DNA from: Candidatus Nanoarchaeia archaeon
Lineage (GTDB): Archaea > Nanobdellota > Nanobdellia > Woesearchaeales > ARS49
NCBI GenBank assembly: GCA_041489925.1
Contig: JBGPSD010000003.1
Coordinates: forward strand, 1,993 to 65,992
Direction of reading: 5' to 3'
Length of the DNA: 64,000 bases
Positions 28,757 to 48,256 of this stretch are shown here, piece after piece. Each line of letters starts with the position of its first letter. Positions within the stretch are counted from its first letter, which is position 1. The position numbers were made by a program, and so were the translations under genes. The notes beneath the pieces were generated by a model. That model had not been told where the DNA came from and made no database searches. It worked only from the letters and a program-made list of their open reading frames with translations.

Positions 28757-29095
28757 ATGAACATATCAGTCTTGCAGGTTATTGTTGTTGTGTTCGCACT
28801 GTTCGCATGGAGCCGCGCAATGCTCAGGCTGCGCGACAGGCATATTTCATTCAGCGAGTTCCTTTTCTGGACCATAATCTGGGCTGCGGTCATTGTCACC
28901 TCAGTATTGCCTCAGACTGCTGATGTTGTTTCAAAGTTCTTAGGCATCAGCAGGCCGATTGACCTTGCGGTGTACGTCAGCATCCTCTTGCTGTTCTACC
29001 TAGTATTCCGCATTTACGTGAACCAGGACAAGCAGGCGCAGGAAATGACAAAGCTCGTGAGGGAAATTGCAGTCAAGCTGCCAAAGCAAAAATGA
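28757..29095 (+). CDS. DUF2304-family membrane protein
   Basis: Three TM segments, LGISRPID, TKLVREIA; typical partner downstream of a DPM1-like GT2. Confidence 0.8.
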   Translation: MNISVLQVIVVVFALFAWSRAMLRLRDRHISFSEFLFWTIIWAAVIVTSVLPQTADVVSKFLGISRPIDLAVYVSILLLFYLVFRIYVNQDKQAQEMTKLVREIAVKLPKQK

Positions 29096-30207
29096 AAATA
29101 CCCTTAATGCGCTGGATTGATAGGGTTGTCGGCACCATGCTGATAATCCCCATCTGGCGCATATCATTGCCGTTTCCAAAGGCAAAGCTTGAGACAAAGC
29201 GCATTCTCATAATCAAGCTCTGGGCATTGGGAGAAAGCCTGCTGACCTTGCCGATGATACAGGCAATAAAAAAGAAGTATCCAAAAGCAACAATTGATGT
29301 CCTTTGCAGAAGCAGGGTAAAGTCTGTTTACTCAGGCCAGAAATTCATAAGCAGCATAATCAGCGCAGAGCCATTGCATTGGATTGCACTAATTCCCCGG
29401 CTCAGGAAATACGACATCGCGATTGACTGCGAGCCATATCTTAACATCTCAGCACTGCTTGCGTGGTGGCTTGGCAGGCGCAGGATTGGCTTCAGCCACG
29501 GAATCCGCAGCCTGCTTTACACTGACAAAATCAAATATAATGACCAGCAGCACATCACTCTCACTTACATGGACATGGGCGCCCCAATCGGTGTTTCAGG
29601 TGTCCCAGAGCGCCTTGTCCCTGTCGCAACCACCCCTCAGGACGAGAAAAAAGTCCAGTCCCTGTTCAAAGAATGGGGAATCAAAAAGACTGACAAGGTG
29701 GTGTGTATTGCCCCAGGAACTGCAGAGTCATCAAAAAGCAGGATTTGGCTTGCAAAGCGCTTCGCAAAAGTCGCTGACGCGCTTGTGAAAGAGTTCCTTG
29801 TGAAAATAATCATCAGCGGAACAAAAGGGGAGCGCGGTTTCGCAGAGGAAATCGCGAAAAACATGAATTACACCCCGATAATTGCAACAGGAGAGACAAA
29901 TGTCAAGGAATTCGCAGCAATGCTCAAGCGCTGCGCATTAATGATTGGCAATGACTCAGGGCCAATGCACCTCTCAGCGGCAATGGGCACGAAAACAATA
30001 GGCCTTTTTTGCCCGAACACGCCTGTAAGATGGGCGCCTTATGGTCCTGGCAATGATTACGTCTACAAGCCTGTGCTTCCAAAGCCATGCATTAACACGC
30101 ACCTCGGCCAGATGCCTGAGTGCAAGGGCCACAATCACATGAGCTTAATAAAGAGCAGTGATGTGATTGAAAAAGCAAGGAGAATGCTACATGCAGGACA
30201 TAATTAA
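29092..30207 (+). CDS. GT9 family glycosyltransferase (heptosyltransferase-like)
   Basis: IIKLWALGE, APG..RIW, NDSGPMHLSAAMG..LF.P. Confidence 0.88.
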   Translation: MKIPLMRWIDRVVGTMLIIPIWRISLPFPKAKLETKRILIIKLWALGESLLTLPMIQAIKKKYPKATIDVLCRSRVKSVYSGQKFISSIISAEPLHWIALIPRLRKYDIAIDCEPYLNISALLAWWLGRRRIGFSHGIRSLLYTDKIKYNDQQHITLTYMDMGAPIGVSGVPERLVPVATTPQDEKKVQSLFKEWGIKKTDKVVCIAPGTAESSKSRIWLAKRFAKVADALVKEFLVKIIISGTKGERGFAEEIAKNMNYTPIIATGETNVKEFAAMLKRCALMIGNDSGPMHLSAAMGTKTIGLFCPNTPVRWAPYGPGNDYVYKPVLPKPCINTHLGQMPECKGHNHMSLIKSSDVIEKARRMLHAGHN

Positions 30208-30760
30208 GAGCGAAATTCAGGGCTCAATCGCCACAAAGCAGGAAGTTCTTGCAAAGCTGGTCCCTGATTTGGAAAAAACCGCAAATATCCTGATTAATGC
30301 CCTGAAAAACAACAATAAAGTCCTTGTCTGCGGCAATGGCGGCTCAGCAGCAGACGCCCAGCATTTCGCAGCAGAGCTCATTGTCCGCTTTGAGACAGAG
30401 AGAAAGGCGCTTCCTGCAATTGCTTTGACAACTGACTCAAGCATTCTTACTGCAGGAGCAAATGATTATGGCATTGACACTCTTTTTTCGCGCCAAATAG
30501 AAGGATTAGGCAGCAAGGGCGATGTCCTGATAGCAATTTCAACCTCAGGAAACTCGCCCAATATCCTCAAAGCGATAGAGGCTGCAAAAAAGAAAGGAAT
30601 GGAAGTCATTGGCTTGACAGGCAGGGATGCTGGAAAGATGAAATCCCTGCAAATCAACAACATAATCATCCCGTCGCAAATCACAGCAAGAATCCAGGAA
30701 TCTCACATAATGGCAATCCACATCTGGTGCAAATTAATTGATGGGGCATTTAGGCAATAA
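30191..30760 (+). CDS. gmhA: Sedoheptulose-7-phosphate isomerase
   Basis: CGNGGSAADAQHFAAEL, NDYG, STSGNS, RIQESH. Confidence 0.93.
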   Translation: MQDIIKSEIQGSIATKQEVLAKLVPDLEKTANILINALKNNNKVLVCGNGGSAADAQHFAAELIVRFETERKALPAIALTTDSSILTAGANDYGIDTLFSRQIEGLGSKGDVLIAISTSGNSPNILKAIEAAKKKGMEVIGLTGRDAGKMKSLQINNIIIPSQITARIQESHIMAIHIWCKLIDGAFRQ

Positions 30761-30804
30761 ACTTTTAAAGCAAGGTATTGATTGGTTTATCAGGAGTAAA
30801 AATA

Positions 30805-31290
30805 ATGGGAAAGATTGTAACGCGCGAGGAACTTGCAAAAATTGTTGCTGACTTGAAAAATCAGGGTAAAAAGATAGTTACCACCAACGGCACTTTTGAC
30901 CTGATGCACATAGGCCACGTGCGCGCATTGCAGCAGGCAAAATTATTTGGCGATATTCTTATCGTTGGCGTCAATTCTGACAGTTCAGTGAAGCAGTACA
31001 AAGGTGATAAGCGACCAGTAATACCTGAAAAAGAGAGGGCAGAAATGATTGCCTCAATAAGCTGTGTTGATTACGTGACAATCTTCAGTGAAAAAGACCC
31101 GCGCGCACTACTTGAAATTGTCAAGCCAAATTTCCACGTCAAGTCAGGCGACTGGGCTCCAGAGAAGATGATTGAAACAGAAATAGTCAGGAAGAACGGC
31201 GGAGAGGTCAAGATTGTGCCGTTCATAGGCAACTTCTCAACAACCAACATTATCCACAAAATCCGCGAAGTTTACAAGGATACGCCCTGA
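30805..31290 (+). CDS. hldC: D-glycero-beta-D-manno-heptose-1-phosphate adenylyltransferase (RfaE domain II)
   Basis: TNGTFDLMHIGH, GVNSDSSV..YKG..RP, VDYVTIF, STTNII. Confidence 0.85.
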   Translation: MGKIVTREELAKIVADLKNQGKKIVTTNGTFDLMHIGHVRALQQAKLFGDILIVGVNSDSSVKQYKGDKRPVIPEKERAEMIASISCVDYVTIFSEKDPRALLEIVKPNFHVKSGDWAPEKMIETEIVRKNGGEVKIVPFIGNFSTTNIIHKIREVYKDTP

Positions 31291-31336: not shown

Positions 31337-31449
31337 TGTCAAGAACCGCCAGTAATGGATACTATTGTAGCGGTTCTTGAGCATGCTCGGAAACTCCGTG
31401 CTCATCCAACAGGATGAAGCAAATTGTTTCCGTGCAGGAGTTTCCGACA
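31337..31449. repeat. Double-hairpin palindromic element between hldC and hldA
   Basis: TCAAGAACCGC/GCGGTTCTTGA and TCGGAAACTCC/GGAGTTTCCGA (two perfect 11-bp inverted repeats) joined by palindrome GAGCATGCTC and closed by TGTC/GACA. Confidence 0.8.
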
Positions 31450-31450
31450 T

Positions 31451-32398
31451 ATGGATACTGCGATAATTGACAAGTTCATTGAAAAGACAATTCTTGTCCT
31501 TGGCGATGTTATGCTCGACAGGTATATCTGGGGCAATGTCGCGAGGATTTCGCCTGAAGCCCCTGTGCCTGTTGTTGAAGTGCAGAACGAGACCTATGCC
31601 CCTGGCGGAGCCGCAAATGCGGCGAACAACATTGTCACGCTTGGTGGAAAGGCAGTGCTTGTCGGAATGGTCGGCGATGACCTTCACGAGGAAATTCTTG
31701 TCAAAGAGCTCGAACAGCGCGGAATTGCCTCGCAACTGGTGCTTGACAGCCGCCCAACAACCACAAAAATAAGGGTTATGGGCATGAAGCAGCAGCTCCT
31801 GAGGATAGACTACGAGCACAAGCACCCGATTGATGAGGAAACAGGAAAAAGAATCATTGACGTGATGAAAGACACCCCTTCTGACGGGATAATAATCTCA
31901 GACTATGCAAAAGGAACTATCACGCAGCAGCTTTACAATGACATACTCCACCTTGCAGAGGCGCTCAAAATCCCTGTTTTCGTTGACGTAAAGCCAAGGC
32001 GCCAGATAAATTATGCAGGGGCGACTGTTGTCAAGACAAATACCAAGGAAGCCTGCGAACTGGCAGGAGTTGAGGAGCACAATGGCGACCAGATTGAGGA
32101 AATAGGCAAAAAGCTTGTCCAGGACCTGAAGTCCAATGTAGTAATAACGCAGGGGGCAAAGGGAGTGAGCATTTTCAGCAAGGATGGAAACATCACTCAC
32201 ATTCCAACAAAGGCAAAGCAGGTCTTTGACGTGACAGGCGCAGGAGACACTTTCCTTGCCGCGTTCGCACTGGCATTTGTAAGCGGCGCAAGCCTGGAAG
32301 ATTCTGCAACAATAGCCAACCACGCAGCAGGAATCAAGGTAGGCAAGGTCGGAACTGCAAGCGTCACTGCAGAAGAACTAAGGCAGGATTTGGAATGA
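31451..32398 (+). CDS. hldA: D-glycero-beta-D-manno-heptose-7-phosphate kinase (RfaE domain I, PfkB family)
   Basis: GDVMLDRY..RISPEAPVPV, PGGAANAA, QQLLRID, ISDYAKG, DVTGAGDT. Confidence 0.92.
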   Translation: MDTAIIDKFIEKTILVLGDVMLDRYIWGNVARISPEAPVPVVEVQNETYAPGGAANAANNIVTLGGKAVLVGMVGDDLHEEILVKELEQRGIASQLVLDSRPTTTKIRVMGMKQQLLRIDYEHKHPIDEETGKRIIDVMKDTPSDGIIISDYAKGTITQQLYNDILHLAEALKIPVFVDVKPRRQINYAGATVVKTNTKEACELAGVEEHNGDQIEEIGKKLVQDLKSNVVITQGAKGVSIFSKDGNITHIPTKAKQVFDVTGAGDTFLAAFALAFVSGASLEDSATIANHAAGIKVGKVGTASVTAEELRQDLE

Positions 32399-32459: not shown

Positions 32460-33182
32460 ATGAAAATCTCAGTTGTCATTCCTGCATACAACGAGGAAAA
32501 GCGCCTTCCGAATGCGCTCAGGCAGGTTCAGCGCCACCTTGACCGCAAAGGAGGGGATTATGAGATACTCGTGGTCAATGACGGCAGCAGGGACAGTACT
32601 CAGAAGGTTGTAAAGGAAGCGATGCAGAAGAACAAGCGCATCAAGCTGCTGGAGAATGGGCGCAACCGCGGAAAGGGATACACTGTAAGGCACGGAATGC
32701 AAAAGGCCAAGGGTGACTGGGTGTTGTTCACTGACGCAGACATGTCCACTCCAATACGCGAGCTTGACCGCTTCATGGAGCACACAAAGGACCATGAAAT
32801 CATAATCGGCTCGCGCAACCTTTCACAGTCGCAGATTACGGTAAAACAGCCAAAATTCCGCCAGCTTGCAGGCAAAACATTTCCGTTTGTGGTTCGCGTC
32901 CTTCTTGCCCTGCCAATAAAGGACACGCAGTGCGGGTTCAAGCTGTTCAGCAGGAAAGCTGCAAAGGAATTGTCCTCAATGCAGCGCCTTGAGCGCTGGG
33001 CATTTGATGCAGAGCTGCTGTTCATTGCAAACAGGCGCGGCTATAAAATCAGGGAAGTGCCTGTGGAGTGGGCAAATGATCCCGCAAGCAAACTTAATAT
33101 CGTTGGGGATTCCTGGCGGATGTTCTGCGAGATTCTCCGCGTGAGGAAAAACGCGGCACTTGGATATTACCCGCCCAGATAA
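32460..33182 (+). CDS. GT2 dolichyl-phosphate glycosyltransferase (ALG5/DPG synthase-like)
   Basis: IPAYNEE, NDGSRD, NRGKG, FTDADMSTP, DTQCGFKLF, FDAELL. Confidence 0.9.
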   Translation: MKISVVIPAYNEEKRLPNALRQVQRHLDRKGGDYEILVVNDGSRDSTQKVVKEAMQKNKRIKLLENGRNRGKGYTVRHGMQKAKGDWVLFTDADMSTPIRELDRFMEHTKDHEIIIGSRNLSQSQITVKQPKFRQLAGKTFPFVVRVLLALPIKDTQCGFKLFSRKAAKELSSMQRLERWAFDAELLFIANRRGYKIREVPVEWANDPASKLNIVGDSWRMFCEILRVRKNAALGYYPPR

Positions 33183-33186
33183 GCAA

Positions 33187-34761
33187 ATGAGAAAAGAAAT
33201 AATGCTCGGCATTGGCATTGCTTTGCTGTATTTCGTGGTCCTGCTCATCCAGCTTCCTGATTACGGCATTACCTGGGATGAGCCAATACAATACTCCTCA
33301 GGGCAGGCGTACACCGAGTACTTCAGCGGCAAGCCGCTTGTTGTTGGTGAAATCTCAAACATTGCAAACTACGGCCCTTTCATGGACATTATGGGCTCAT
33401 ACTCCTACATTATCCTGAGCAAGAATCTTGGGCTGATGGACCCGATTTCAGCGCACCGCGTGCCCACTGCATTCATGGCGGCGATTGCTGTTCTTGTTGT
33501 TTATTTGTTTGCCCTGCGCTATTACAACCTTTTTATTGCGATAATCAGCGCATTGGCGCTCGCCTGCTATCCTCATTTTTTTGCGCACGCCCATTTCAAT
33601 GTCAAGGACATCCCTATGGCAGGGATGTATACATTAGTGCTTGTCTTGTGGCACGAAGCCACCCTGAGAAAGAGCTGGAAGTGGTCAATTGCTGCAGGTG
33701 TTGCGCTCGGGCTTGCCGGCGCCACCAAGTTCAATGCCGCATTCATCCCCATTGTGCTGGTTTTGTGGTGGCTGGTGGCATTCCGCGACAAGCTCAAAGT
33801 GGACGGCAAGTTCGTGATCCCAAAACGGTGGGACATTATTGCAGGATTTCTTGTTTCAATCCCTGTCGCAGTCCTTGCCTGGCCGTGGCTGTGGTTTAGC
33901 ACTGTTGAACACGTAAAGGGCATCATTCAAACTTTCTCAAGTGTGGCTAAAGGCTTTGTGGTATTTTACTTTGGCCAGGGATATTCGTCTGGTGTTGATG
34001 TTCCATGGCATTATCCATTCGGCTACCTGTATGCTGTGACGCCGGTGATACTACTGATACTCGCGGTTATTGGGTTCATCATCGCGGTATATGACACAAA
34101 GACACTGAAGAACCGCGCATCAGTACTGGTTTTGCTGTGGTTTCTTGTCGCAACGCTAAAAATCAGCTTCTCAGGAATGGTTTATGACGGAATCAGGCAG
34201 TTCTTTGAGGTCGTTCCTGCGCTTGCCCTGTTCGCAGGCATGGGCGCATGGTTCTGCTTCAGGCTGTCCCGCAGTTTTACTAAAAACATTCTTTCAGCCG
34301 GCAAGTCGCAAGCCGCATTTGGAATCATCCTGCTGCTTTTGCTTTGGCCCACGCTTAGCGCAATGCACCGCCTTCATCCGTATGAAAGCAGTTATTACAA
34401 CGGCTTCATTGGCGGCACGCAAGGCGCTGTTGGCAATCTGCGCGTGAGCTACTGGGGAGAGCCTATAAAAGAAGGCGCAGAATGGCTCAACAAGAACGCA
34501 GAGCGCAATGCGCGCATCAATGCGCTTGAGGTGCCGAATCTCGTACTGTATTATACGCGGCCTGACCTTAGGGTTGGAATGGGGGATGGCGGCGATTACA
34601 TAATTACGCTGAACGCATTCCCTGCCCAGGCGCTGCACACAGTGTATGCCGATGGAGTGCCTATCCTTAATATTTATAAAGCCAATCCGAATGGCAACTT
34701 CACTGATTATAACGTAGAAGATGGCATTGACATCTTCTACAAACACGAGATAAAAAAATGA
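33187..34761 (+). CDS. GT-C fold (ArnT/PMT-like) membrane glycosyltransferase
   Basis: YGITWDE, HFNVKD, ATKF, VPWHY, YDGIRQF, HPYE..YYN; multi-TM. Confidence 0.82.
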   Translation: MRKEIMLGIGIALLYFVVLLIQLPDYGITWDEPIQYSSGQAYTEYFSGKPLVVGEISNIANYGPFMDIMGSYSYIILSKNLGLMDPISAHRVPTAFMAAIAVLVVYLFALRYYNLFIAIISALALACYPHFFAHAHFNVKDIPMAGMYTLVLVLWHEATLRKSWKWSIAAGVALGLAGATKFNAAFIPIVLVLWWLVAFRDKLKVDGKFVIPKRWDIIAGFLVSIPVAVLAWPWLWFSTVEHVKGIIQTFSSVAKGFVVFYFGQGYSSGVDVPWHYPFGYLYAVTPVILLILAVIGFIIAVYDTKTLKNRASVLVLLWFLVATLKISFSGMVYDGIRQFFEVVPALALFAGMGAWFCFRLSRSFTKNILSAGKSQAAFGIILLLLLWPTLSAMHRLHPYESSYYNGFIGGTQGAVGNLRVSYWGEPIKEGAEWLNKNAERNARINALEVPNLVLYYTRPDLRVGMGDGGDYIITLNAFPAQALHTVYADGVPILNIYKANPNGNFTDYNVEDGIDIFYKHEIKK

Positions 34762-35855
34762 TAAAGCAGATTGTAAGGACAATCACGATAAAACAAAAGC
34801 CCGTGCCGGTTGTAAACCCCACAAAAATCTGCATTTTCAAGATGGGGGCAATAGGCGACATAATCCTGACAACGCCAATGGTTCACGCGCTGAGGCAGCG
34901 CTATCCAAAGGCGCGGATTGACTACTGGGTCGGGCAGTGGGCTTCAAAAGCCCTCAAGGGAAACAAGGATGTAAGCCATGTTTTCGTTTTTGATGATGCC
35001 ACATTCATCAACAAGCGCGTTGACCTGGTGATAGCGCTCGCAAGGCAGATTGCGGCCCAGCGCTATGACGCAATGTTCATACTTGACAAGCACTGGTCAT
35101 TGGGCACATTTGGCAGGCTGTGCAATGTGCCAATAAGAATAGGCTTTGACCGCGAGGGAGAGGGGTTTGCGCACACAATCACTGTCCCATTCGGCCCTGC
35201 AAAGCACGAAGTGGATTACTACCTGCAATTGGCTTACAAGGCTGGAGCGAAAAAAGTTGCCCAGCCCAAGCTTGAATTCGAGCTCAGCAATGAAGACAAG
35301 CAGTTTGCAAAGAATTTTTTTGCAGCCCACAATCTCAACCCGAAAAAAACAATCGGAATCATCCCTGGCGGCGCAAAAAACCCAGGTCAGGAACTGCCGA
35401 TAAAGAGGTGGCCTGCTGAATATTACGCCATTGTCGCGCAGGCTTTGGAAAAAGAAGGATGGCGGATAATACTCATTGGAAGGTCTCCTGGCGATGATGA
35501 CGCACTGCAGATAATGAAGGAAACAGTGCCAAATGTTGTCAGCGCAATCAGCAACCTCACATTGCAGCAGTCAGGGGCATTGATGCAGAAATGCAGGATG
35601 ATAGTCTGCAATGACTCAGGACCCCTGCATATGGCGGCTGCAGTGGGCACGCCGACTGTCGCAATCTTCGGCCCGACAGACCCAAAGCGCTGGGCTCCAA
35701 GGGGCAAAAACCATTTGTGGATATGGAACCGCATTGAATGCACCCGCGCAATGATGTACGGTAAGTATGACTCTCCTGGATTGAGGGAAAATATCCTTAA
35801 AGTGCAGCCAAAGCACGTTCTCAAGGCAGTTCATAAGCTGCTGAAACAAAAATGA
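34758..35855 (+). CDS. GT9 family glycosyltransferase (heptosyltransferase-like)
   Basis: KMGAIGDIIL, HEVDY, KRWP, NDSGPLHMAAAVG..FGPTDP. Confidence 0.9.
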   Translation: MIKQIVRTITIKQKPVPVVNPTKICIFKMGAIGDIILTTPMVHALRQRYPKARIDYWVGQWASKALKGNKDVSHVFVFDDATFINKRVDLVIALARQIAAQRYDAMFILDKHWSLGTFGRLCNVPIRIGFDREGEGFAHTITVPFGPAKHEVDYYLQLAYKAGAKKVAQPKLEFELSNEDKQFAKNFFAAHNLNPKKTIGIIPGGAKNPGQELPIKRWPAEYYAIVAQALEKEGWRIILIGRSPGDDDALQIMKETVPNVVSAISNLTLQQSGALMQKCRMIVCNDSGPLHMAAAVGTPTVAIFGPTDPKRWAPRGKNHLWIWNRIECTRAMMYGKYDSPGLRENILKVQPKHVLKAVHKLLKQK

Positions 35856-38559: not shown

Positions 38560-38561
38560 GC

Positions 38562-40881: not shown

Positions 40882-41213
40882 AACGCGTGCTGCAAACGCT
40901 TGGCGCTGCTTCAGCAATAATCCTTATGCTGGTCTGGAGCTTTACCCGGACTCCGGGAGAGGCATTTGGGATTACCATTGCAGCAGTGATGCTCTGGCTG
41001 GTGCCTGGCTATACGCTTGTGCATTTCACTGTTAAAGACCTGAAGGAATACGAGAAAGTGGTAATTGGCATTTTCATGGGCTATGGATTGACTGCCTGGC
41101 TTTTGTATTATCCTAATTTTTTCGGTTTGCCGACAGTAAGGCCCATCTTGGGATACCTGATTGGAATTGCCTGCTTGGCAGCGCTCCTTTTAATTGAAAG
41201 CAGGAAAAAATAA
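40878..41213 (+). CDS. Small membrane protein (DUF1616-like)
   Basis: LVPGYTL..YEKVVIG; four hydrophobic segments. Confidence 0.6.
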   Translation: MKRVLQTLGAASAIILMLVWSFTRTPGEAFGITIAAVMLWLVPGYTLVHFTVKDLKEYEKVVIGIFMGYGLTAWLLYYPNFFGLPTVRPILGYLIGIACLAALLLIESRKK

Positions 41214-41214: not shown

Positions 41215-42135
41215 TCAGTTCTTTGCTTCCTTAAGCTTTAGATAGTCCTCAAGGAACCCTGTTACTGCATTTGAAGTGCCTGCGTGGTAGCGCGACGCCT
41301 CAAGCAGTGCAGGAGAGACTGTTGGAATCGCGTTTACAGGCTGAGCGACCTTCAGTACGGCGCGATAAGCCAGCTTTTTCATCTTAAGGGCTTCATTTGC
41401 ATCTTCTGCTGCTGCGCTTTCCCATTTCTTTGGCAATCGCACGCTTCCAAGGATAATGCGCAGTTTTGAGCCTTCAAGCTGGCGTGCAGTTTCATTTACC
41501 TCCTGTGCAGACAGGTCAATTATTTTGCTTAAATCAGCATAATCAGTGAAGGTTTTGTTGGCAATCCCCTGTTCCACATATTGGTCAAGAAGCCTGCCCC
41601 AGAATATGCTGAAATAGCTTTCCCTAACCGTCGGCAGTGCTGCCTGCTTTATTGTTGCGGCAATGTCGCGCGCCTGCTCATATCCAAAACAGCAGGTGAT
41701 ATTCAAGGCAACACCTTTTGAAGCAAGCTCTGCCATGACAGGAAGAGTGTCAATGTATGCGCGTTTTCCTTCAGGCCCATCAGTGACTTTGACTGAAGAA
41801 GGCGGGTTTTGCATTATTCCCGGACTGCACCGTTCTGCAGTGCGCTCATCAAGATAGAATGGCGCAGGAATCTTCACGACAATCCTGTTTTTGTCCCACT
41901 CATGAAACTTTTGCGCATCCTCAACCATTTTTTCAGGAATTATTGAGGTGACTTCAATGCTGAGCACTTTGCGTTCCAATACTTTCAAAATGTCCTGGCA
42001 GTGCGACTCGTACTTTTCCTCAGGGATTCCCATCTTTGACATCAGTGATGGGTTTGTTGTCCCGCCTGAAATCAGGTTTTTGTGCATTTTATACGCTTCA
42101 ATGTCCGGTGTGTCCAAAAAAAGTTCAACTGTCAT
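41215..42135 (-). CDS. tal: Transaldolase (TalC-type with insertions)
   Basis: LFLDT, GTTNPSL, SIEV, Schiff-base VVKIP, NITC, SIFWGR, GSVR. Glu in SIEV and Phe in SIF are the transaldolase, not the FSA, signature. Confidence 0.82.
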   Translation of the reverse strand: MTVELFLDTPDIEAYKMHKNLISGGTTNPSLMSKMGIPEEKYESHCQDILKVLERKVLSIEVTSIIPEKMVEDAQKFHEWDKNRIVVKIPAPFYLDERTAERCSPGIMQNPPSSVKVTDGPEGKRAYIDTLPVMAELASKGVALNITCCFGYEQARDIAATIKQAALPTVRESYFSIFWGRLLDQYVEQGIANKTFTDYADLSKIIDLSAQEVNETARQLEGSKLRIILGSVRLPKKWESAAAEDANEALKMKKLAYRAVLKVAQPVNAIPTVSPALLEASRYHAGTSNAVTGFLEDYLKLKEAKN

Positions 42136-42146: not shown

Positions 42147-42773
42147 CTAAGTCTGGTGTTTCTCTATCAGTTCCTTGAGCCTGAAAATCATCAAGTGCTG
42201 GATATCAGAATGAAACCCTTCAACAAGAGGTGTTGAGTCCTTTGGCACAATTATTGTTGCGTCGCAAATATCCTTGAATGCCCCGCCGTCAAATCCTGCC
42301 ATTCCGATTGCCTTGCCTCCGTGGTCTTTGACATATTGCATTGCCTTTGTGAGGTTCTGGCTCCATGTTCCTGCATTTCCCTTGCCTTTGCCGCCGTGCA
42401 CGCTGATTCCCAGCACAACGTCGCCGGGCTGCATGAAGTTCTCTATCTGGCCCACAAACACGTTTTCCCAGCCTTCATCATTTGTCCATGCTGTTGTAAG
42501 CGCGGGATTCTCAACAAGGGACATTGCCTTGAACCTCTTCTTGCCTTTGCACATTGTGGTCTTTGCGAGGTCTGCGGCAAAATGGCTTGCTGTTGCTGCG
42601 CTTCCTCCGCAGCCCATAACAAACACGTGGCTTCCGCTCCTCCATGCCTCAAACAGGATTTCGATTGCCTTATCGATCTGTGCGCGGTCAATTTTAGCAA
42701 TTATTTCGCCAACTTCTGCCAGGTAATTGTCAATGTGGCTCTTGTTGTCCGGAAATGATTGTGTTTGCTCCAT
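42147..42773 (-). CDS. gmhA: Second SIS-domain phosphoheptose isomerase (GmhA-like)
   Basis: GCGGSAATASHFAADL, TAWTNDEG, ISVHG, GFDGG, VEGFH. Confidence 0.8.
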   Translation of the reverse strand: MEQTQSFPDNKSHIDNYLAEVGEIIAKIDRAQIDKAIEILFEAWRSGSHVFVMGCGGSAATASHFAADLAKTTMCKGKKRFKAMSLVENPALTTAWTNDEGWENVFVGQIENFMQPGDVVLGISVHGGKGKGNAGTWSQNLTKAMQYVKDHGGKAIGMAGFDGGAFKDICDATIIVPKDSTPLVEGFHSDIQHLMIFRLKELIEKHQT

Positions 42774-42781: not shown

Positions 42782-43789
42782 TCAGAAGGCCCTGCCGTCA
42801 TACACTATGCGGCTGCCTTCAAAATCAAACTTGAACGGTGTCTTGACAAGCCCTTCCTTGCCAAGAACGCCTGCAATCCTGTCGTGGTTGTCTTCGGCAT
42901 ACACCAGCAGGAATCCCCCGCCTCCTGCGCCGATAACCTTGCCGCCGAGCGCGCCGTTTTCCATTGCAAGCCGGTACCATTTGTCTATTGCCGAATTTGA
43001 CATCTTGTTAGTCAGCTTGCGCTTGAGCTCCCAATGGATATTCATCCATTCCCCAAAGCGCTTCAGTTCGCCGCGCTCAAAGCACTTCAGGCTTTCATTG
43101 CCTATTTTCTGTATTTCGTGGTAATAGTCAAAAATTGAATCAGATTTCTCGCTTCCGGAATCTTTCTCTGCTTTCTGCTTTTGTTCTGAAAGAATTTCGT
43201 TTGTTGACCTGCTTATTCCTGTGAAGAACAGCATAAGGTTGCGTTCGAGCAGCTTGACATTGTCGTGCGTTATGTTCACCGGCGACACTGTCACGCGCTG
43301 GTTTTTGCTTATCTTGAGGCTGCTTATGTTGCCAAATGCTGCTGCATACTGGTCCTGCTTGCCGCAAGGCTCCTTTAATACGCCCATTGTAATTGTTGAG
43401 GCGTCTTCTGCAAGCTTGTACTTGGATACAATCTCGCCGTTATAGTAATAGAGCGCGTTTAACAATCCCACAAGGAAGCTTTGCGAGGAGCCCAAACCAG
43501 TTCCTGCATTAACATCTGAGACAGAGTGGATTTCAATTCCTCCAGTGATGCCGACAAATTTCAGGGCTTCGCGGATAAGCGGATGCTCTATCTGGTCAAC
43601 ACTGTCCGCGAGTTCTGTTTTTGAATAGTTCAGCTTTATCTTTGAATCCATGCGCGGGCTTACTGTGATGTAGATGTACTTGTTTATCGCAGCAGTGACC
43701 AATGAGGAACCAAACTTTTCACAGTAGAAAGGCAAATCTGTTCCTCCCCCACCAAGTGAAATCCGCATCGGAGTGCGTGAAACCAGCAT
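42782..43789 (-). CDS. hddA: D-glycero-alpha-D-manno-heptose-7-phosphate kinase (GHMP family)
   Basis: RTPMRISLGGGGTD, GTGLGSS, GKQDQY, GGKVIGAGGGGF. Confidence 0.88.
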   Translation of the reverse strand: MLVSRTPMRISLGGGGTDLPFYCEKFGSSLVTAAINKYIYITVSPRMDSKIKLNYSKTELADSVDQIEHPLIREALKFVGITGGIEIHSVSDVNAGTGLGSSQSFLVGLLNALYYYNGEIVSKYKLAEDASTITMGVLKEPCGKQDQYAAAFGNISSLKISKNQRVTVSPVNITHDNVKLLERNLMLFFTGISRSTNEILSEQKQKAEKDSGSEKSDSIFDYYHEIQKIGNESLKCFERGELKRFGEWMNIHWELKRKLTNKMSNSAIDKWYRLAMENGALGGKVIGAGGGGFLLVYAEDNHDRIAGVLGKEGLVKTPFKFDFEGSRIVYDGRAF

Positions 43790-43851: not shown

Positions 43852-44694
43852 TTACTTCTGTTCAGCAAATAAATTATCATCAATCCTGCGCAATGTGTAC
43901 AATGAGCCAGCAAGCAGCTCTTTCTTCTTGTCAAAAGTTGCAGGGTCATCCCACACTGCACTCAATACTTTGCCAGTGATTTGCCTGCCAGCCTCGCTGG
44001 CAAGATAAAGCGCGAGCTGCGCTGCTTTTTCAGGAGAGGTTCCTCCTGTTTCTTTCTGTCTTCTGCTTGCTTCAAGAAAATCAATGCCTGCGGCATCGCC
44101 TGCGGCAAGCACCTGGTCAAGCAGCCTGGTGTTTACTGCGCCAGGCGCAATCGCATTTACCTGGATGTTATATTGCTTGAGCTCATTGGCAAGCGCTTCT
44201 GTGAATCCGCATACTCCAAATTTGGAAGTGACATACGCAGAAAGATTTGGCTTCACAGAACCTCCCACTCCGCCTCCTGCAAGCGTGATTATTGTACCAT
44301 GCCCCTGCTGTTTCATAAGCGGAACCGCGGCATGTGCAGCATTTACAGTGCCCATGAGATTGACATCAATAGCTTCCTTCCAGGCTTCAGGAGTTGCCTG
44401 GTCAAAAGCGCCAATGGGGCCGTATATTCCTGCGCATGCAACCAGAACGTCAAGCCTTCCTGCGCGCTGATAAATCTCTCCGGCAACAGCCTTAAGCCTG
44501 CCTGCATCACGGACATCAGCAACAAATCCCTCGCAATTGCCGCCAAGCCCGCGAATATCCTCAATTGTGCGCTCAATGTCTGGTTTTGTGCGCGCACAAA
44601 CATACACATTATCCCGCGCTTTTGCAAATGCGGCAGCGACTGCCTTTCCTATTCCCTGGCTTCCGCCTGTAACAAACACTGCCTTACCTTGCAT
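43852..44694 (-). CDS. Short-chain dehydrogenase/reductase
   Basis: TGGSQGIG, CAGI, YVTSK, VNAIAPG; start ATG 44694 overlaps the upstream stop. Confidence 0.9.
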   Translation of the reverse strand: MQGKAVFVTGGSQGIGKAVAAAFAKARDNVYVCARTKPDIERTIEDIRGLGGNCEGFVADVRDAGRLKAVAGEIYQRAGRLDVLVACAGIYGPIGAFDQATPEAWKEAIDVNLMGTVNAAHAAVPLMKQQGHGTIITLAGGGVGGSVKPNLSAYVTSKFGVCGFTEALANELKQYNIQVNAIAPGAVNTRLLDQVLAAGDAAGIDFLEASRRQKETGGTSPEKAAQLALYLASEAGRQITGKVLSAVWDDPATFDKKKELLAGSLYTLRRIDDNLFAEQK

Positions 44695-45973
44695 AGTCCA
44701 CCCCAATGCCATGATATTCCAAATGCCCCTTGACTTTGTCTGCATAAGAGTTGGTTGTGTCAAGCATGACAGGATTGCGCATCAGCTTTGCAATCGCCGC
44801 ATAATCAATGCGGCTGAACTCATCCCAGGGGGTTGTAATAATAATTGCGTCTGCTGCTATTGCAGCTTCCTGCGGGCTCCCGCAGATGCTGATATTCGGG
44901 TGAGTTGCGATTTTGCCGCGGATTGCAGGGTCATAAGCGCGCACGCTCGGGAGTTCGCACGCAATCTGGTCAATGATTTGCAATGCGAGTGAGCGCTTAA
45001 GCGTGTCTGTGTTTGGCTTGTACGTGAGCCCGAAGAAAGCAAGGCCCTTTCCTGAAAGCGTGCCGAGAATTGAGCGCAGCCTGCCAGGAACATAATTCAG
45101 GCGCGCATTTCTCGTGTCGAGCACGGCATCAAAAACCCGTGTTGGGACTGCGTGTTCCCTTCCCAGACTGCGAAGCATCTGGATGTCCCTTGCCAGCGTG
45201 CCGCCCCCAAAACCAAGGCCCGGTGCAATTGGCGCTTGCGGGCTGACGCGCTTTTCAGTGCGCAATGCATGCATAACATCAAGGGCATTTGCCCCTGTCT
45301 TCTCGCAAAGGTCGCTTATTTCGCATGAAAAGGATATCATCGTTGCCAGATAGCTGTTTAGCGCGTGTTTTGCCATCTCTGCACTTTCAAGGCTCATGTA
45401 AAGCCGTTCCCCAGGAATGCCTGCATAAAGCTCTTCAACTCTTTGCCTGAGCTCAGGGGAAGACAAGCCAAAAACCGTCCGCTCAGGTGAAAGGAAGCGC
45501 TCGATTGCCGTGCCCAGCCTGAGGTTTTCAGGGATGTAGCACAAGCCATTTTCTTTGTTTTCTTTGCGAAGCCTGTCAAGCAATCCGCGCGAAGTTCCTA
45601 TCGGGACCTGGCTGGACAGCAAGACAATTGCACCACCAGACAAATAATGCAGCATTTTGTCAAAAAGTATTTCCACAGGGCGTATGTCTGCCTTGTCTTC
45701 CCCATCAACAGGGGTGTCAAGCGCAACATATGCAAAATTTGCTTTGGATACTGCGCTTGCAATGTCTGTGGTAAACCCAATCATGTCCTGGCCGGCAGCA
45801 GCCCTGATTGTTTCTTCCAGGCCAGGCTCAAATATTGGAGGCTTGCATTGCCGCAGGTCAGCAATGACTTTTGCATCATTATCATAACCAATAACCTTGT
45901 GCCCGAGCTTGGCAAAACATGCAGCAGTAACACATCCCAAATGAGACATCCCAAGAATGCCTACGCTGCTCAT
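44684..45973 (-). CDS. UDP-glucose/GDP-mannose 6-dehydrogenase family protein with catalytic Cys replaced
   Basis: PIFEPGL, DTPV, PENLRLG, EMAKHALN, GFGGGTLARD (canonical GFGGxCxxKD), GLTYKPNTD. Confidence 0.85.
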   Translation of the reverse strand: MSSVGILGMSHLGCVTAACFAKLGHKVIGYDNDAKVIADLRQCKPPIFEPGLEETIRAAAGQDMIGFTTDIASAVSKANFAYVALDTPVDGEDKADIRPVEILFDKMLHYLSGGAIVLLSSQVPIGTSRGLLDRLRKENKENGLCYIPENLRLGTAIERFLSPERTVFGLSSPELRQRVEELYAGIPGERLYMSLESAEMAKHALNSYLATMISFSCEISDLCEKTGANALDVMHALRTEKRVSPQAPIAPGLGFGGGTLARDIQMLRSLGREHAVPTRVFDAVLDTRNARLNYVPGRLRSILGTLSGKGLAFFGLTYKPNTDTLKRSLALQIIDQIACELPSVRAYDPAIRGKIATHPNISICGSPQEAAIAADAIIITTPWDEFSRIDYAAIAKLMRNPVMLDTTNSYADKVKGHLEYHGIGVDYAR

Positions 45974-46554
45974 TGCGCCCCCCTGTGCCCAAGCGCGTAT
46001 TGCACTGCTTCTAATAATGAACTGGCGGTGTATTCTGGTGTTATTCCCACGGTTTTGAGCCGCTGCTCATCGCGGCTCATGCTTCCAGAGCCAGCCACAA
46101 GAATCCCTCTTGCTCCGGCTGCTTGCCCTGTGACTATGTCTGTAAGCGAGTCGCCAATCATCCAAGACATTGCCAGGTCAATACTGTGTTCTTTTGCTGC
46201 ACAAAGCAATAGCCCTGGCTTTGGCTTTCTGCAGCCGCACACAATTTTAAGTTCAGGGACTTCTCCTAAAAAGCCTTTTTCAGGATGGTGCGGACAGACA
46301 TAGACTGCGTCAATTTTTGCAGGCGCGATTAGAGCCCTCATTTTTTCATGGACGCGCTCCATGTCAGCAAATGTGAAATATCCTTTTGCAATATCTGGCT
46401 GGTTTGTTGCCACAATTGCAAGATAGCCTGCATTATTTATTGCATGGATGGCCTCAGGCACGCCCTCCCTGAGCTCAAACTGGCTTTCGTGCTTGAGGTC
46501 AGGGACATAACGGTTTATTGTGCCGTCGCGGTCAAGGAAGATTGCGCGATTCAT
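45970..46554 (-). CDS. gmhB: D,D-heptose-1,7-bisphosphate phosphatase (HAD IIIA)
   Basis: FLDRDGTIN, TNQ, CPHHP..C.CRKPKPG, IGDS..D. Confidence 0.9.
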   Translation of the reverse strand: MNRAIFLDRDGTINRYVPDLKHESQFELREGVPEAIHAINNAGYLAIVATNQPDIAKGYFTFADMERVHEKMRALIAPAKIDAVYVCPHHPEKGFLGEVPELKIVCGCRKPKPGLLLCAAKEHSIDLAMSWMIGDSLTDIVTGQAAGARGILVAGSGSMSRDEQRLKTVGITPEYTASSLLEAVQYALGHRGAQ

Positions 46555-47297
46555 GGGAATACCTTCCCCTTTTGGGCAACTTCCTCGGTTAATTGGTGAT
46601 ATTTATCCATGTTGTTTACATCCCTGAAAAATCCAGTACCGACCATTCCATACACCGGAAGCTTTTTAGCAAGCAGGCCGGGAATTAACTGCTTTGCAAA
46701 ATCACACTTTTCGCCCTGGGGGATATGGGCGAATACATCTGGATTTATGACGTACATTCCATTATTAATGAACGTCTGTCCTGAGCTATATTGCGCAAAT
46801 TCTTCTTCAGATGGTTTCTCACGGAAGAGTGTGACCCTGCCTGTTTCGTCCAGAGTGATAAGGCTTGTGCTGATGTATCCTTCAGGCCGCGGCCTGACCA
46901 CGATGGTGAACATGCTGCCTTTCTGCTTGTGAAAATCAACAAGGTCATCAAGGCAAATTGAAGCAAGGTTGTCGCCATAATGCACAATGCTGGCGCCATT
47001 GACAAGAGGTTCGCAGAGCTTTACCGCTCCGGCTGTTCCAAGAAGTTCAGGCGGCTCGTGCGAATAGCGCGCATTTATGCCAAATGCAGCGCCATCCCTG
47101 AAGTAATCCTGGATTTTATCAGCGAGGTGGCTGACACAGAAGACAATGTCAGTGTAGCCCTGGTCGCGGAATTGCTCAATCTGATGCTGGACCAAAGGCT
47201 TTCCGGCAATGTCAAGAAGGCATTTGGGAATGTCAGGCAACTGCTCTTTGAGCCGGGTGGCAAGGCCTCCTGCCACAATTAATATTGTTGGTTTCAT
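46551..47297 (-). CDS. Nucleotidyltransferase, heptose-1-phosphate guanylyltransferase (HddC)-like
   Basis: AGGLATRL..PK, LGTAGA, YGD, FREKP, INNGMY; context with hddA, gmhA and gmhB. Confidence 0.78.
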   Translation of the reverse strand: MKPTILIVAGGLATRLKEQLPDIPKCLLDIAGKPLVQHQIEQFRDQGYTDIVFCVSHLADKIQDYFRDGAAFGINARYSHEPPELLGTAGAVKLCEPLVNGASIVHYGDNLASICLDDLVDFHKQKGSMFTIVVRPRPEGYISTSLITLDETGRVTLFREKPSEEEFAQYSSGQTFINNGMYVINPDVFAHIPQGEKCDFAKQLIPGLLAKKLPVYGMVGTGFFRDVNNMDKYHQLTEEVAQKGKVFP

Positions 47298-48256
47298 CGC
47301 AGCTCCAGTATTTCAGGATGATTTTTGAGCCATTGTGTTGTGCGGCGAACGCAGTCTGGAATGCTGAGCGTCGGCTTCCAGCCAAGATTTTTCATTTTGG
47401 CAATGTCAAGATGTATGAACGGGCTGTCTCCAACCCAGCCGCGCTCTCCTCCAGCATACTTGAAATTCACATTGCTTAGCCCAAGCTCTTCGCACACAAT
47501 TTGCGCAATGGGAGTTACCTGGATGTTATCATCGTGGCCAAGGTTGTAAGTGTTTACCGGCTCATCTGATGATGCCACTGCATTAAGCATGCCGCGAACT
47601 CCGTCCTGGACGTAGAGATAGGATTTTTTCTGCCTGCCGTCACCCAGGATTTCAAGCTCCCTGGGATTCGCGCTGAGCTTGCGCATAAAATCATAAACAC
47701 ACCCGTGCGTATAGCGCTCACCCATGAATGACACAAACCTGAATATGTATGCCTTCATGCCATATCCGATTGCATATGCGTGGGCAAGCCCTTCGCCTGC
47801 AAGCTTTGATGCGCCATACATTGAAGTCTGCACAGGAAATGGCGCATTCTCAGGTGTTGGGTGGATGTTTGGCTCGCCATACACGCTTCCTGTGGAAGGG
47901 AAGGCAATGCCCTGCACGCCATTCTTGCGCATTGCCTCAAGAACATTGCTCGTGGCAATTGTATTCTGCTCCAGCACGGTCTCAGGATGCTTGAGGTTTT
48001 CCTTTACATCTGCGTGCGCAGCCATATGGAACACAAAGTCAACGCCTGCAAGCATATCATCAAGTGTCCTGCGGTCAAGCAGGTCAGCATGAACAAATTT
48101 GATCCTGTTCTTTGAAGCTTCAAGAAACTCGCGCCGCCCTGTGGAAAGATTGTCATAAACAGTCACTTTGCACATAGGAACAAGGGCATCAACAAGATTG
48201 CTTCCTATAAATCCTGCTCCACCAGTAACAAGGACGTGCTTTCCATTCAAATCCAT
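47294..48256 (-). CDS. NAD-dependent nucleotide-sugar epimerase/dehydratase
   Basis: TGGAGFIG, STGSVYG, YGASK, LGDGRQKKSY, GWVGD. Confidence 0.88.
   Translation of the reverse strand: MDLNGKHVLVTGGAGFIGSNLVDALVPMCKVTVYDNLSTGRREFLEASKNRIKFVHADLLDRRTLDDMLAGVDFVFHMAAHADVKENLKHPETVLEQNTIATSNVLEAMRKNGVQGIAFPSTGSVYGEPNIHPTPENAPFPVQTSMYGASKLAGEGLAHAYAIGYGMKAYIFRFVSFMGERYTHGCVYDFMRKLSANPRELEILGDGRQKKSYLYVQDGVRGMLNAVASSDEPVNTYNLGHDDNIQVTPIAQIVCEELGLSNVNFKYAGGERGWVGDSPFIHLDIAKMKNLGWKPTLSIPDCVRRTTQWLKNHPEILELR

Follow-up and report, generated by a model that had tools for sequence, protein, structure and literature searches.

A probable protein-glycosylation island of an uncultured archaeon carries genes for two NDP-heptose routes and three GT9 proteins behind aglB

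Results

Gene content of the locus

The gene aglB, which encodes an STT3-type oligosaccharyltransferase, stands at the head of a long run of sugar-nucleotide and glycosyltransferase genes in a 64-kb stretch of contig JBGPSD010000003.1 from a Candidatus Nanoarchaeia archaeon (assembly GCA_041489925.1); we refer to this whole stretch as the window. The open reading frames (ORFs) of the window were listed and 59 of them were scanned against Pfam and NCBIfam, with ORFs of less than about 100 amino acids (aa) lying outside the scan. Behind aglB the plus-strand genes form a co-directional, partly overlapping array that ends at 41213 and includes 4-bp gene overlaps at 29092/29095, 34758/34761, 35852/35855 and 40878/40881 (Table 1). 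It is followed by a minus-strand array (48256-41215) in which the order of transcription is GalE-type epimerase, nucleotidyltransferase, GmhB, dehydrogenase, short-chain dehydrogenase/reductase (SDR), kinase, GmhA2 and transaldolase-like (TAL-like) protein, with 4-bp overlaps among the first four genes (47294/47297, 46551/46554 and 45970/45973). An earlier reading of this DNA that used no database searches (the sequence-only reading) had reported gmhA-hldC-hldA, GT9 genes, a minus-strand operon and a third GT9 gene at 60847, with aglB upstream, and every one of these is found where it was placed. Its central observation, that a beta (HldA/HldC) and an alpha (HddA-type) route to nucleoside diphosphate (NDP)-heptose are encoded together with three GT9 proteins in a locus that starts with aglB, is borne out. 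For the minus-strand operon the genes that it named are present; it had missed the SDR, the NDP-sugar dehydrogenase and the GalE-type epimerase.

Table 1 Features of the aglB locus, with positions counted from the first letter of the window. Scores are in bits; a value after "vs" is the cut-off of the model.
Feature	Coordinates	Strand	Assignment	Scores and remarks
aglB	24593..28006	+	STT3-type oligosaccharyltransferase with N-terminal repeat region and C-terminal FKBP domain	
GT2a	28060..28752	+	Short polyprenyl/dolichyl-phosphate sugar synthase, candidate initiating enzyme	
DUF2304	28757..29095	+	Small membrane protein, putative partner of GT2a	PF10066 84.1
GT9_1	29092..30207	+	Heptosyltransferase-family GT-B protein	PF01075 117.3 vs 22
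gmhA	30167..30760	+	Predicted sedoheptulose-7-phosphate isomerase	TIGR00441 214.9 vs 209.45
hldC	30778..31290	+	Predicted heptose-1-phosphate adenylyltransferase	rfaE_dom_II TIGR02199 187 vs 181.5
hldA	31424..32398	+	Predicted PfkB-fold heptose-7-phosphate 1-kinase, beta route	Probable start 31451
GT2b + PMT2a	32460..34761	+	Polyprenyl-phosphate-sugar synthase and ArnT/PMT-type GT-C protein	PF00535 113.4; PMT_2 49
GT9_2	34758..35855	+	WaaF-like GT9 protein	PF01075 145.2; TIGR02195 140.1 vs 134.6
Core tail	35852..41213	+	PMT2b (GT-C), unk147, GT2c, methyltransferase, unk559, unk111	
TAL-like	41215..42135	-	Long transaldolase-like protein (306 aa), proposed supplier of sedoheptulose-7-phosphate	PF00923 78.1
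gmhA2	42147..42773	-	Divergent phosphoheptose isomerase (SIS)	TIGR00441 94.9 vs 209.45
HddA-type kinase	42782..43789	-	HddA-family GHMP kinase, predicted heptose-7-phosphate kinase giving the alpha-1-phosphate	NF049969 167.3 vs 600
SDR	43852..44763	-	Classical SDR oxidoreductase	PF00106 170.4
NDP-sugar dehydrogenase	44684..45973	-	NDP-sugar 6-dehydrogenase (UDP-glucose dehydrogenase family)	TIGR03026 291.6 vs 189.8
gmhB	45970..46554	-	Predicted heptose-1,7-bisphosphate 7-phosphatase	Only copy in window
Nucleotidyltransferase	46551..47297	-	Sugar-1-phosphate nucleotidyltransferase, in the HddC position	PF00483 103.5
GalE-type epimerase	47294..48256	-	NDP-sugar 4-epimerase	Best solved relative GalE-1 3ehe, 286.7
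Rest of strain-specific block	48333..60755		GFO/IDH oxidoreductase, GT2d, methyltransferase, PMT2c, double helix-turn-helix (HTH) Lrp/AsnC regulator (-), unk338, GT2e, PMT2d, unk545, methyltransferase (-), SDR epimerase	
GT9_3	60847..61932	+	GT9 protein	PF01075 127.9; TIGR02201 149.6 vs 170.2
GT-C proteins	33160-34761, 35852-37492, 39202-40881, 50903-52600, 55522-57327, 57324-58961		Up to six ArnT/PMT-type proteins	

Oligosaccharyltransferase and beta-route genes

The assignment of AglB is based on matches to Pfam PF02516 (113.7 bits), the STT3-PglB core (25.8 bits) and FKBP_C (64.2 bits); the catalytic WWDXG motif is present as WWDFG at residue 674, and a DxD motif lies at residue 255. The protein is a 1137-aa fusion; within its N-terminal region of about 125 aa, an acidic (D/E)LSIDFSKIKSWF-like motif is repeated three or four times. 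GT2a, encoded immediately downstream, scores 191.7 bits on the NCBIfam model for the polyprenyl-phospho-N-acetylhexosamine synthase PpgS (cut-off 370) and 106.9 bits on that for AglJ, and the DUF2304 protein encoded after it has four hydrophobic segments.

Both gmhA and hldC score above the curated lines of their models (Table 1). The product of hldA is, as judged from its sequence, clearly a member of the HldA/HldE domain I family, though it falls under the curated line; the next-best family, ribokinase, reaches only 94.6 bits. HldA and HldC are encoded by separate genes here. The sequence-only reading had allowed that HldC might instead be a glycerol-3-phosphate cytidylyltransferase of the TagD type, an assignment that we rejected, given 187 bits on the HldC-domain model against 38.7 bits on the TagD-type model (cut-off 165.4). 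The C-terminal motif of HldC is FIGNFSTT, in which the Arg found in (F/L)XXGRSTT, a motif associated with the use of CTP or UTP (PMC11573728), is missing; HldC thus offers no support for nucleotide promiscuity. We also considered the STTR5 motif as a sign of CDP- or UDP-heptose and dropped it: an Arg precedes STT in none of the 10 archaeal HldC proteins inspected, and a commentary on archaeal NDP-heptose enzymes states that the motif is not strictly required.

No HldD was found in the window; the gene that comes closest to the HldD model (59742-60755) reaches 110.2 bits, with the cut-off at 274.6. With no 6-epimerase encoded in the window, the product of the route would stay D,D-heptose.

Synteny and variability among relatives

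When representative genomes were scanned with HldA, 24 loci were obtained (11 from archaea and 13 from bacteria), which we designate by number (L001 and so on) and against which the window proteins were searched by tblastn (E up to 1e-10, at least 50% of the query covered). Three of the archaeal loci, L001-L003, are close relatives of the window (HldA 80-95% and AglB 72-90% identical), and they share with it the order geranylgeranyl reductase, aglB, GT2a, DUF2304, GT9_1, gmhA, hldC, hldA, GT9_2, which then continues with GT-C, unk147, GT2c, unk559 and unk111. More broadly, the gene order aglB, GT2a-like, GT9_1-like is found together with heptose genes in 6 of the 11 archaeal loci (L001, L002, L003, L007, L010 and L017), most of which carry the label Woesearchaeota or Nanoarchaeota, and this recurrence indicates that the clustering is not due to chance. 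The AglB proteins of L007, L010 and L017 are only 35-42% identical to that of the window, so that the connection between heptose genes, GT9 genes and aglB is stronger than could be known to the sequence-only reading. GT2a lies directly 3′ of aglB in L001-L003, L007 and L010 and is separated from it by a gap of about 2 kb in L017; the DUF2304 gene is kept after GT2a in L001-L003, L010 and L017. In two further loci, L004 and L018, the contig stops before the place at which aglB would be expected. A GT9 gene is present within the fetched flank of 10 of the 11 archaeal loci, as against none of the 13 bacterial ones. L007, in which AglB is 37% identical, keeps orthologues of both the GT9_1 and the GT9_2 type.

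The heptose genes themselves differ between near and far relatives. The core of the window and of L001-L004 has neither GmhB nor HldD, and a complete L,D-heptose route is encoded in the more distant relatives, with an HldD-type epimerase encoded in the clusters of L005, L006, L007 and L010 (269-297 bits against a cut-off of 274.6). Several of these loci encode GmhB and HldC in single ORFs, in either order (L005 6676-7677, L007 10948-11940, L010 10970-11959 and L017 8507-9553); the order is GmhB-HldC in L007 and HldC-GmhB in L017, these two being confirmed by NCBIfam, and the ORFs of L005 and L010 are assigned from tblastn matches and ORF limits. L017 has in addition an HldE-type kinase-adenylyltransferase (9543-10988), and with it two HldC domains. 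In L003 and L004, where gmhA and hldC are separated by a gap, we looked there for a gmhB gene and met instead an ORF of 335-336 aa on the opposite strand (L003 8415-9422, L004 725-1735, both minus) that has no Pfam family and is absent from the window. The FKBP tail of AglB is likewise variable, being kept in L001-L003 and replaced in L017 by an FKBP-like stretch upstream of aglB.

Comparison with the closest relatives separates a core, which we place at 24.6-41.2 kb together with GT9_3, from a block that is strain-specific. In L002 and L003 an orthologue of GT9_3 (66-67% identity) directly follows unk111, and 41.2-60.8 kb of the window has no counterpart there; this stretch is thus an extra block of 19.6 kb in the window. 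It contains the alpha-route operon, which is in this way absent from two of the three close relatives, two more GT2/GT-C modules, a double-HTH Lrp/AsnC regulator, methyltransferases and oxidoreductases. DNA identity between the window (22841-61820) and L003 is mosaic: it reaches 90-92% in hldA and in the stretch that runs from the reductase gene as far as gmhA, and only 65-74% in hldC, GT9_2, GT-C, GT2c, unk559 and GT9_3. The locus therefore combines a left part that is conserved with a right part that diverges fast and with swappable cassettes, as a review describes for variable N-glycosylation clusters in haloarchaea (PMC11407970).

In a maximum-likelihood tree of 25 HldA proteins, the 13 bacterial ones (Cloacimonadota and Armatimonadota) lie on one side of a branch with support of 93/96, and the window protein is sister to that of L003 (100/97), to which it is 95% identical. 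The proteins were sampled by likeness to the window protein, so that the tree is silent on deep origin; it argues against a recent transfer into this genome. Three of the archaeal loci carry the label Methanosarcinales (L003, L017 and L018) and are syntenic with loci labelled Woesearchaeota or Nanoarchaeota, and one of these sets of labels must be wrong. Our judgement favours the Woesearchaeota/Nanoarchaeota set, which is shared by several independent series of records with this synteny.

The GT9 proteins

All three GT9 proteins pass the Pfam family cut-off. Against the models for lipopolysaccharide (LPS)-core equivalogs only GT9_2 passes one line (TIGR02195), and all three proteins lie far below the cut-offs for RfaF, RfaC and RfaQ. 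The match of GT9_2 to the GT9 structure 3tov (102.7 bits) and to WaaF (1psw, 93.5 bits) spans the full length of the protein; its five hits among solved structures (E up to 0.001) are confined to 3tov, WaaF and WaaC and include no chain of the TibC type. The motifs GD, KRW and NDSGPLH are visible in GT9_2, and GT9_3 has variant forms of them. Orthologues of GT9_1 (33-80% identity) occur in nine archaeal loci. In L002 the orthologue of GT9_3 is spread over two ORFs that overlap (16700-17398, 232 aa; 17376-17672, 98 aa), which reflects a frameshift or an assembly error. As regards an ADP-heptose donor and a lipid-anchored acceptor, what the sequences show is the conservation of motifs, with Glu for Asp in the GD motif of GT9_1; the acceptor is a property that is not readable from sequence.

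The minus-strand operon

GmhA and GmhB types are both encoded in this one co-directional, partly overlapping operon, each under its equivalog cut-off. The HddA-type kinase has as its four best solved relatives proteins that are heptose-7-phosphate kinases or putative ones (4n3o, 136.2 bits; 3k85, 135.6 bits; 4usm/4usk, 121-124 bits), followed by galactokinase at 56 bits, which at the level of sequence speaks against the use of hexoses that the sequence-only reading had named as an outcome that would undo it. One source gives the name D-glycero-alpha-D-manno-heptose-7-phosphate kinase to many of the kinase's relatives (46-93% identity); those from named organisms belong to Aenigmarchaeota, Nanoarchaeota, Woesearchaeota, Lokiarchaeota and a Sigynarchaeum, and bacteria appear at about 49% identity. 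Among the solved relatives listed for GmhA2, 13 of 15 are phosphoheptose isomerases and two are DiaA, the best being 1tk9 (77.2 bits). GmhB scores 145.3 bits on NF006506 (cut-off 178) and 124.3 bits on TIGR00213 (cut-off 149.6); among solved structures it matches 3l8e and 2gmw (106 bits), which are D,D-heptose 1,7-bisphosphate phosphatases.

The nucleotidyltransferase is harder to place. It lies well below the HddC equivalog line (NF049965, 86.8 bits against 300) and scores higher, at 113.2 bits, on a model for mannose-1-phosphate guanylyltransferase (ManC-type); its best solved relative is annotated as a UTP-glucose-1-phosphate uridylyltransferase (UGPase; 121.7 bits), and its match to the HddC-type entries 5xhw and 6jq8 from Yersinia is confined to residues 5-113 (55 bits). 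The label "hddC-like" that the sequence-only reading had attached to this gene is thus not borne out, the protein being nearer to the ManC and UGPase types, and the "GDP" of that reading is an assumption. Among the relatives listed, 23 of 115 are fused to a GmhB-type HAD domain and 2 of 115 to a SIS (GmhA-type) domain, which ties the family to heptose. Similarly, 2 of the 120 kinase relatives listed (P0089 and P0105, 548 aa) are fusions of a transaldolase and an HddA-type kinase, as confirmed by Pfam. Fusion proteins elsewhere, of the TAL-HddA, nucleotidyltransferase-GmhB and nucleotidyltransferase-GmhA types, thus tie the alpha-route genes to heptose.

The TAL-like protein can be matched pairwise to known transaldolases only at residues 4-91 (3s0c). 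In an alignment of eight long relatives and four short transaldolase-family proteins, D8, E61, K88, T147, F178 and R181 are invariant; we take these to be the active-site set of a transaldolase, with K88 as the Schiff-base Lys, and not that of a fructose-6-phosphate aldolase. The long form (301-362 aa) is rare, with eight relatives at 46-75% identity among 5.8 billion proteins, and has three insertions relative to transaldolases of 230 aa, the largest of which comes right after the strand that bears the Schiff-base Lys. The NDP-sugar dehydrogenase also matches models for TuaD (253 bits) and AglM (204 bits). We considered the epimerase as a GDP-heptose 4,6-dehydratase that would lead to a 6-deoxyheptose, and dropped this idea in view of its best solved relatives, which are GalE-type 4-epimerases.

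Further genes of the window

Short GT2 genes paired with ArnT/PMT-type GT-C genes recur along the island. The GT2b and PMT2a cassette is an addition to the core, being absent at this position in L001-L003, with an orthologue of GT2b elsewhere in L001. In the core tail, PMT2b, unk147, GT2c, unk559 and unk111 have the same order in L001-L003, and the methyltransferase has no counterpart there. Unk147 and unk111 are small membrane proteins; unk559 is a GT-C-like protein of 559 aa with 11 hydrophobic segments, and its alignment with PMT2b (E 2e-10) extends over the full length. Up to six GT-C proteins of the ArnT/PMT_2 type are thus encoded within 25 kb, most of them beside a short GT2 of the Dol-P-sugar-synthase type. 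Four are assigned by Pfam, unk559 by its likeness to PMT2b, and unk545 by a lead from a protein atlas alone (score 0.99).

Elsewhere in the window, topoisomerase I is of the archaeal type (TIGR01057, 589 bits against a cut-off of 458), and further archaeal markers are geranylgeranyl reductase, a PGF-pre-PGF surface protein, an S-layer-like protein and STT3/AglB. G+C content is even, at 0.43-0.54. The only RNA gene in the window is that for tRNA-Trp (13846-13921), which is abutted by a LAGLIDADG-type endonuclease gene (13922-14578, minus strand). Between 2063 and 11058, 9 of the 12 scanned ORFs have no Pfam family and none of the 12 has an NCBIfam match; only PLD-like and serine-hydrolase genes and, further on, a PolX gene are recognisable around this region.

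Directly upstream of the island, the minus strand from 14674 to 23321 carries a run of predicted surface-protein genes, for a PGF-pre-PGF protein with Ig-like domains, an S-layer-like protein, two NEW3-domain proteins, a leucine-rich repeat protein and a 630-aa protein of no family. A homologue of the S-layer-like gene (41% identical) adjoins aglB in L007. We looked for enrichment of N-X-S/T sequons in these neighbouring surface proteins as a sign of acceptors and abandoned the idea, as none was found.

Discussion

We regard this locus as a probable protein-glycosylation island; the uncultured archaeon that carries it is most likely of the DPANN (Woesearchaeota/Nanoarchaeota) type. As to what the island makes, we lean, if only slightly, towards the view that the GT9 proteins add ADP-D,D-heptose to a dolichol-linked glycan, that AglB transfers this glycan to protein, and that alpha-heptose and a uronic acid serve as decorations that vary between strains. 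What can be read from the DNA is which enzyme families are encoded, how the operons are built, and where relatives share or vary the gene order; from these we infer the acceptor, the transfer by AglB, the linkage, the nucleotide of the alpha route and which of the transferases would use alpha-heptose. The notion that the clustered glycosyltransferases would build the very glycan that AglB transfers draws its support from the synteny seen in 6 of 11 archaeal loci, and the placement of heptose on N-glycans, rather than on lipids or a polysaccharide, would follow the same line of inference.

The pathway that we envisage would begin with the formation of ADP-D,D-heptose by GmhA, HldA, a GmhB-type phosphatase and HldC, and with the loading of a first sugar onto dolichyl phosphate by the PpgS/AglJ-like GT2a and its DUF2304 partner. 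GT9_1, GT9_2 and GT9_3 would then heptosylate the lipid-linked glycan at the cytoplasmic face, much as WaaC and WaaF act on a lipid-anchored acceptor, after which the glycan would be flipped and transferred by AglB to Asn residues of surface proteins. Pairs of a short GT2 (as Dol-P-sugar synthase) and an ArnT/PMT-type GT-C protein, together with methyltransferases, may decorate the glycan outside the membrane. In the strain-specific block, a dedicated transaldolase would supply sedoheptulose-7-phosphate, which GmhA2, the HddA-type kinase, GmhB and the nucleotidyltransferase would convert to NDP-D-glycero-alpha-D-manno-heptose, the nucleotide probably being GDP; the NDP-sugar dehydrogenase and 4-epimerase of the block are probably there for a uronic acid, and the block would also supply two more GT2/GT-C modules.

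In its fullest form, the proposal is that a whole lineage of DPANN type has taken LPS inner-core chemistry from the bacterial repertoire, namely ADP-heptose together with two or three GT9 heptosyltransferases, into AglB-dependent N-glycosylation. Its surface proteins would bear a conserved core glycan with heptose, which swappable cassettes would diversify among close strains; one of these would be a self-sufficient alpha-heptose module with its own supply of sedoheptulose-7-phosphate from a new, long type of transaldolase. We put this forward tentatively, as an idea slightly more apt to fail than to hold. If true, it would provide the first physiological role for archaeal NDP-heptose and the first GT9 enzymes that act on dolichol-linked acceptors.

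A number of observations weigh against the pathway that we envisage. The core of the window and of L001-L004 lacks GmhB, the only copy in the window being in the strain-specific block, and no GmhB was found in L002 or L003 within the fetched stretch, so that the beta route is incomplete as seen. HldA scores 338.3 bits on rfaE_dom_I (TIGR02198), which is 6.7 bits below the cut-off of 345; HddA, GmhA2, GmhB and the nucleotidyltransferase are all well below their equivalog cut-offs; and GT9_1 has GE in place of the N-terminal GD motif, that is, Glu for Asp. The family scans recognised no flippase of the Wzx/AglR type in the window. In the upstream surface proteins N-X-S/T sequons are scarce (1 in 426 aa; 2 in 837 aa), and these proteins thus give no sign of being acceptors. 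In L005, L006 and L019 aglB was not seen in the available flanks. Finally, the labels of the archaeal loci disagree, with eight assigned to Woesearchaeota, Nanoarchaeota, Nanoarchaeia or Pacearchaeota and three to Methanosarcinales (L003, L017 and L018).

Some of these observations would sit well with a different product. The heptose genes and GT9 proteins could build a glycoconjugate that is not protein-bound, such as a membrane glycolipid, a lipoglycan or a surface polysaccharide, with AglB a mere neighbour in a general cell-surface island. The characterised GT9 enzymes matched here all act on lipid-anchored LPS cores, the six GT-C proteins could serve the modification of a lipid or polysaccharide, and both the paucity of sequons and the three loci in which no aglB is seen near the heptose genes fit such a view. 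Being a mere neighbour, however, would poorly explain an order of aglB, GT2a, (DUF2304) and GT9_1 that is kept in six loci down to 35-42% AglB identity, and no Wzx, Wzy, Wzz or ABC transporter family for polysaccharide export or polymerisation was recognised in the family scans of the window; we consider this explanation unlikely. A further alternative concerns the product of the minus-strand operon. It may make not GDP-heptose but a heptose carried by another nucleotide (UDP, dTDP, CDP or ADP), or its nucleotidyltransferase may act on a hexose, for instance mannose or glucose, with heptose-1-phosphate left to another enzyme for activation. The model scores and solved relatives of the nucleotidyltransferase point this way, as does one source that names its closest relatives mannose-1-phosphate guanylyltransferase, and a dehydrogenase of the UDP-hexose type and a GalE-type epimerase are encoded in the same operon. 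Yet the gene overlaps gmhB by 4 bp, its relatives are fused to GmhB- and GmhA-type domains, the operon has no other nucleotidyltransferase, and in six cases relatives of the nucleotidyltransferase and of the kinase lie on contigs of equal length, which suggests, without proving, that the two are neighbours elsewhere. On balance we find a departure from GDP-heptose somewhat unlikely.

Other explanations fare worse. The sequence-only reading had favoured a heptose-rich surface resembling the LPS inner core, possibly as a mimic of a bacterial host. ADP-heptose and GT9 enzymes are indeed the chemistry of that inner core, and the locus labels point to DPANN archaea, some cultivated members of which are ectosymbionts according to a preprint (10.1101/2023.10.27.564410). 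As that reading had itself observed, though, no gene for lipid A or 3-deoxy-D-manno-octulosonic acid (Kdo) synthesis is apparent, with no Lpx, Kds or WaaA family among the scanned ORFs; the lack of HldD in the window implies D,D-heptose and not L,D-heptose, the usual sugar of LPS cores; the archaeal HldA proteins stand apart from the nearest bacterial ones in the tree, which gives no hint that the gene was lately acquired from a bacterial partner; and the window holds nothing that would speak to a host. We therefore consider both host mimicry and an LPS-like structure unsupported and the idea as a whole very improbable: "LPS-core-like" went beyond data that show only the use of GT9 proteins, and the activity of ADP-heptose as an ALPK1 agonist, which had also been raised, has no bearing on an environmental archaeon. 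We give equally little credence to direct glycosylation of proteins by the GT9 proteins, in the manner of the autotransporter heptosyltransferases TibC and Aah and with neither lipid carrier nor AglB. Protein heptosylation that depends on ADP-heptose does exist in bacteria (PMC4358343), but the solved matches of GT9_2 include no TibC-type chain and the GT9 genes are tied to aglB and a polyprenyl-phosphate sugar synthase. Lastly, the heptose and GT9 genes, which are typically bacterial, could be bacterial DNA misjoined to an archaeal contig, and a protein-atlas search with the topoisomerase, which is a lead only, gave only bacterial clusters among its matches. We find this scarcely credible given the archaeal topoisomerase I, geranylgeranyl reductase, PGF-pre-PGF protein and AglB of the same window, its even G+C content and the same gene order in independent archaeal assemblies.

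On the reading that we prefer, heptose on dolichol-linked N-glycans, the locus addresses a question raised by others. NDP-heptose enzymes are described as functional in archaea and their role is called elusive (PMC11461863, PMC11573728); the authors of the 2024 study write that why archaea make manno-heptose "remains elusive" and that conserved neighbour genes might give a hint (PMC11573728). The locus and its relatives are such a hint, with heptose genes lying between an oligosaccharyltransferase gene and GT9 genes in one archaeal lineage, and they lead to a concrete and testable proposal, namely that N-glycans contain heptose and that GT9 enzymes build them on dolichol. No paper connecting archaeal aglB loci to GT9 or heptose genes came up in a full-text literature search, which most subscription journals lie outside. 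A conserved core with cassettes that differ between relatives of about 90% DNA identity is the pattern expected under diversifying pressure, for example from viruses or partners, and diversification of surface glycans matters for small archaea whose life may depend on contact between cells. If the long transaldolase feeds the pathway, it would also show a possible route to sedoheptulose-7-phosphate.

Comparison with known systems

The beta-route genes resemble the bacterial system that makes ADP-L-glycero-beta-D-manno-heptose and uses it, through WaaC, WaaF and WaaQ, for the LPS inner core. Common to both are GmhA and an HldC-type adenylyltransferase, together with an HldA-type kinase and a GmhB-type phosphatase that here score under the cut-offs of their models, as well as GT9 proteins of the GT-B fold with the motifs GD, K-x-W and (N/P)D(S/T)GP-x-H. 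Unlike that system, the present one is found in an archaeal host, has separate genes for kinase and adenylyltransferase, has no HldD, Kdo or lipid A genes in the window, and lies behind an oligosaccharyltransferase gene, so that the acceptor is likely a dolichol-linked glycan in place of Kdo2-lipid A.

The minus-strand operon brings together the four enzyme types of the GDP-D-glycero-alpha-D-manno-heptose pathway (GmhA, HddA, GmhB and HddC), and its kinase is closest to solved heptose-7-phosphate kinases. This pathway serves S-layer glycans and capsules in bacteria, as in Aneurinibacillus, in Campylobacter and with WcbL in Burkholderia. The archaeal operon differs in its host, in a nucleotidyltransferase that is not an HddC equivalog, and in its additional genes for a long transaldolase-like protein, an SDR, an NDP-sugar dehydrogenase and a GalE-type epimerase. 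GT2a, for its part, can be compared with mycobacterial PpgS (Rv3631), which works with a small membrane partner and a GT-C protein, and with three-component systems of the GtrA/GtrB/GtrC type: here too a short GT2 lies beside a DUF2304 membrane protein, with ArnT/PMT-type GT-C proteins nearby. In contrast to PpgS, GT2a scores under the cut-off of the model and would use an archaeal lipid carrier.

A precedent for heptose in an archaeal Asn-linked glycan comes from another phylum, in that the N-glycan of Thermoplasma acidophilum contains heptose, in a passage that names no biosynthetic genes (PMC11407970); no link of this glycan to GT9 was found in print. The closest parallel in overall layout is with archaeal agl clusters such as that of Haloferax volcanii, in which aglB is likewise flanked by an AglJ-like GT2, glycosyltransferases, methyltransferases and sugar-nucleotide genes. 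Unlike these clusters, the island described here has GT9 and NDP-heptose genes, for which the literature search gave no link to an archaeal agl cluster, six GT-C proteins of the ArnT/PMT type and an AglB that is fused to FKBP. Like them, it is made up of a conserved part and a strain-variable part, and variable second N-glycosylation clusters have been described for haloarchaea in the same source (PMC11407970).

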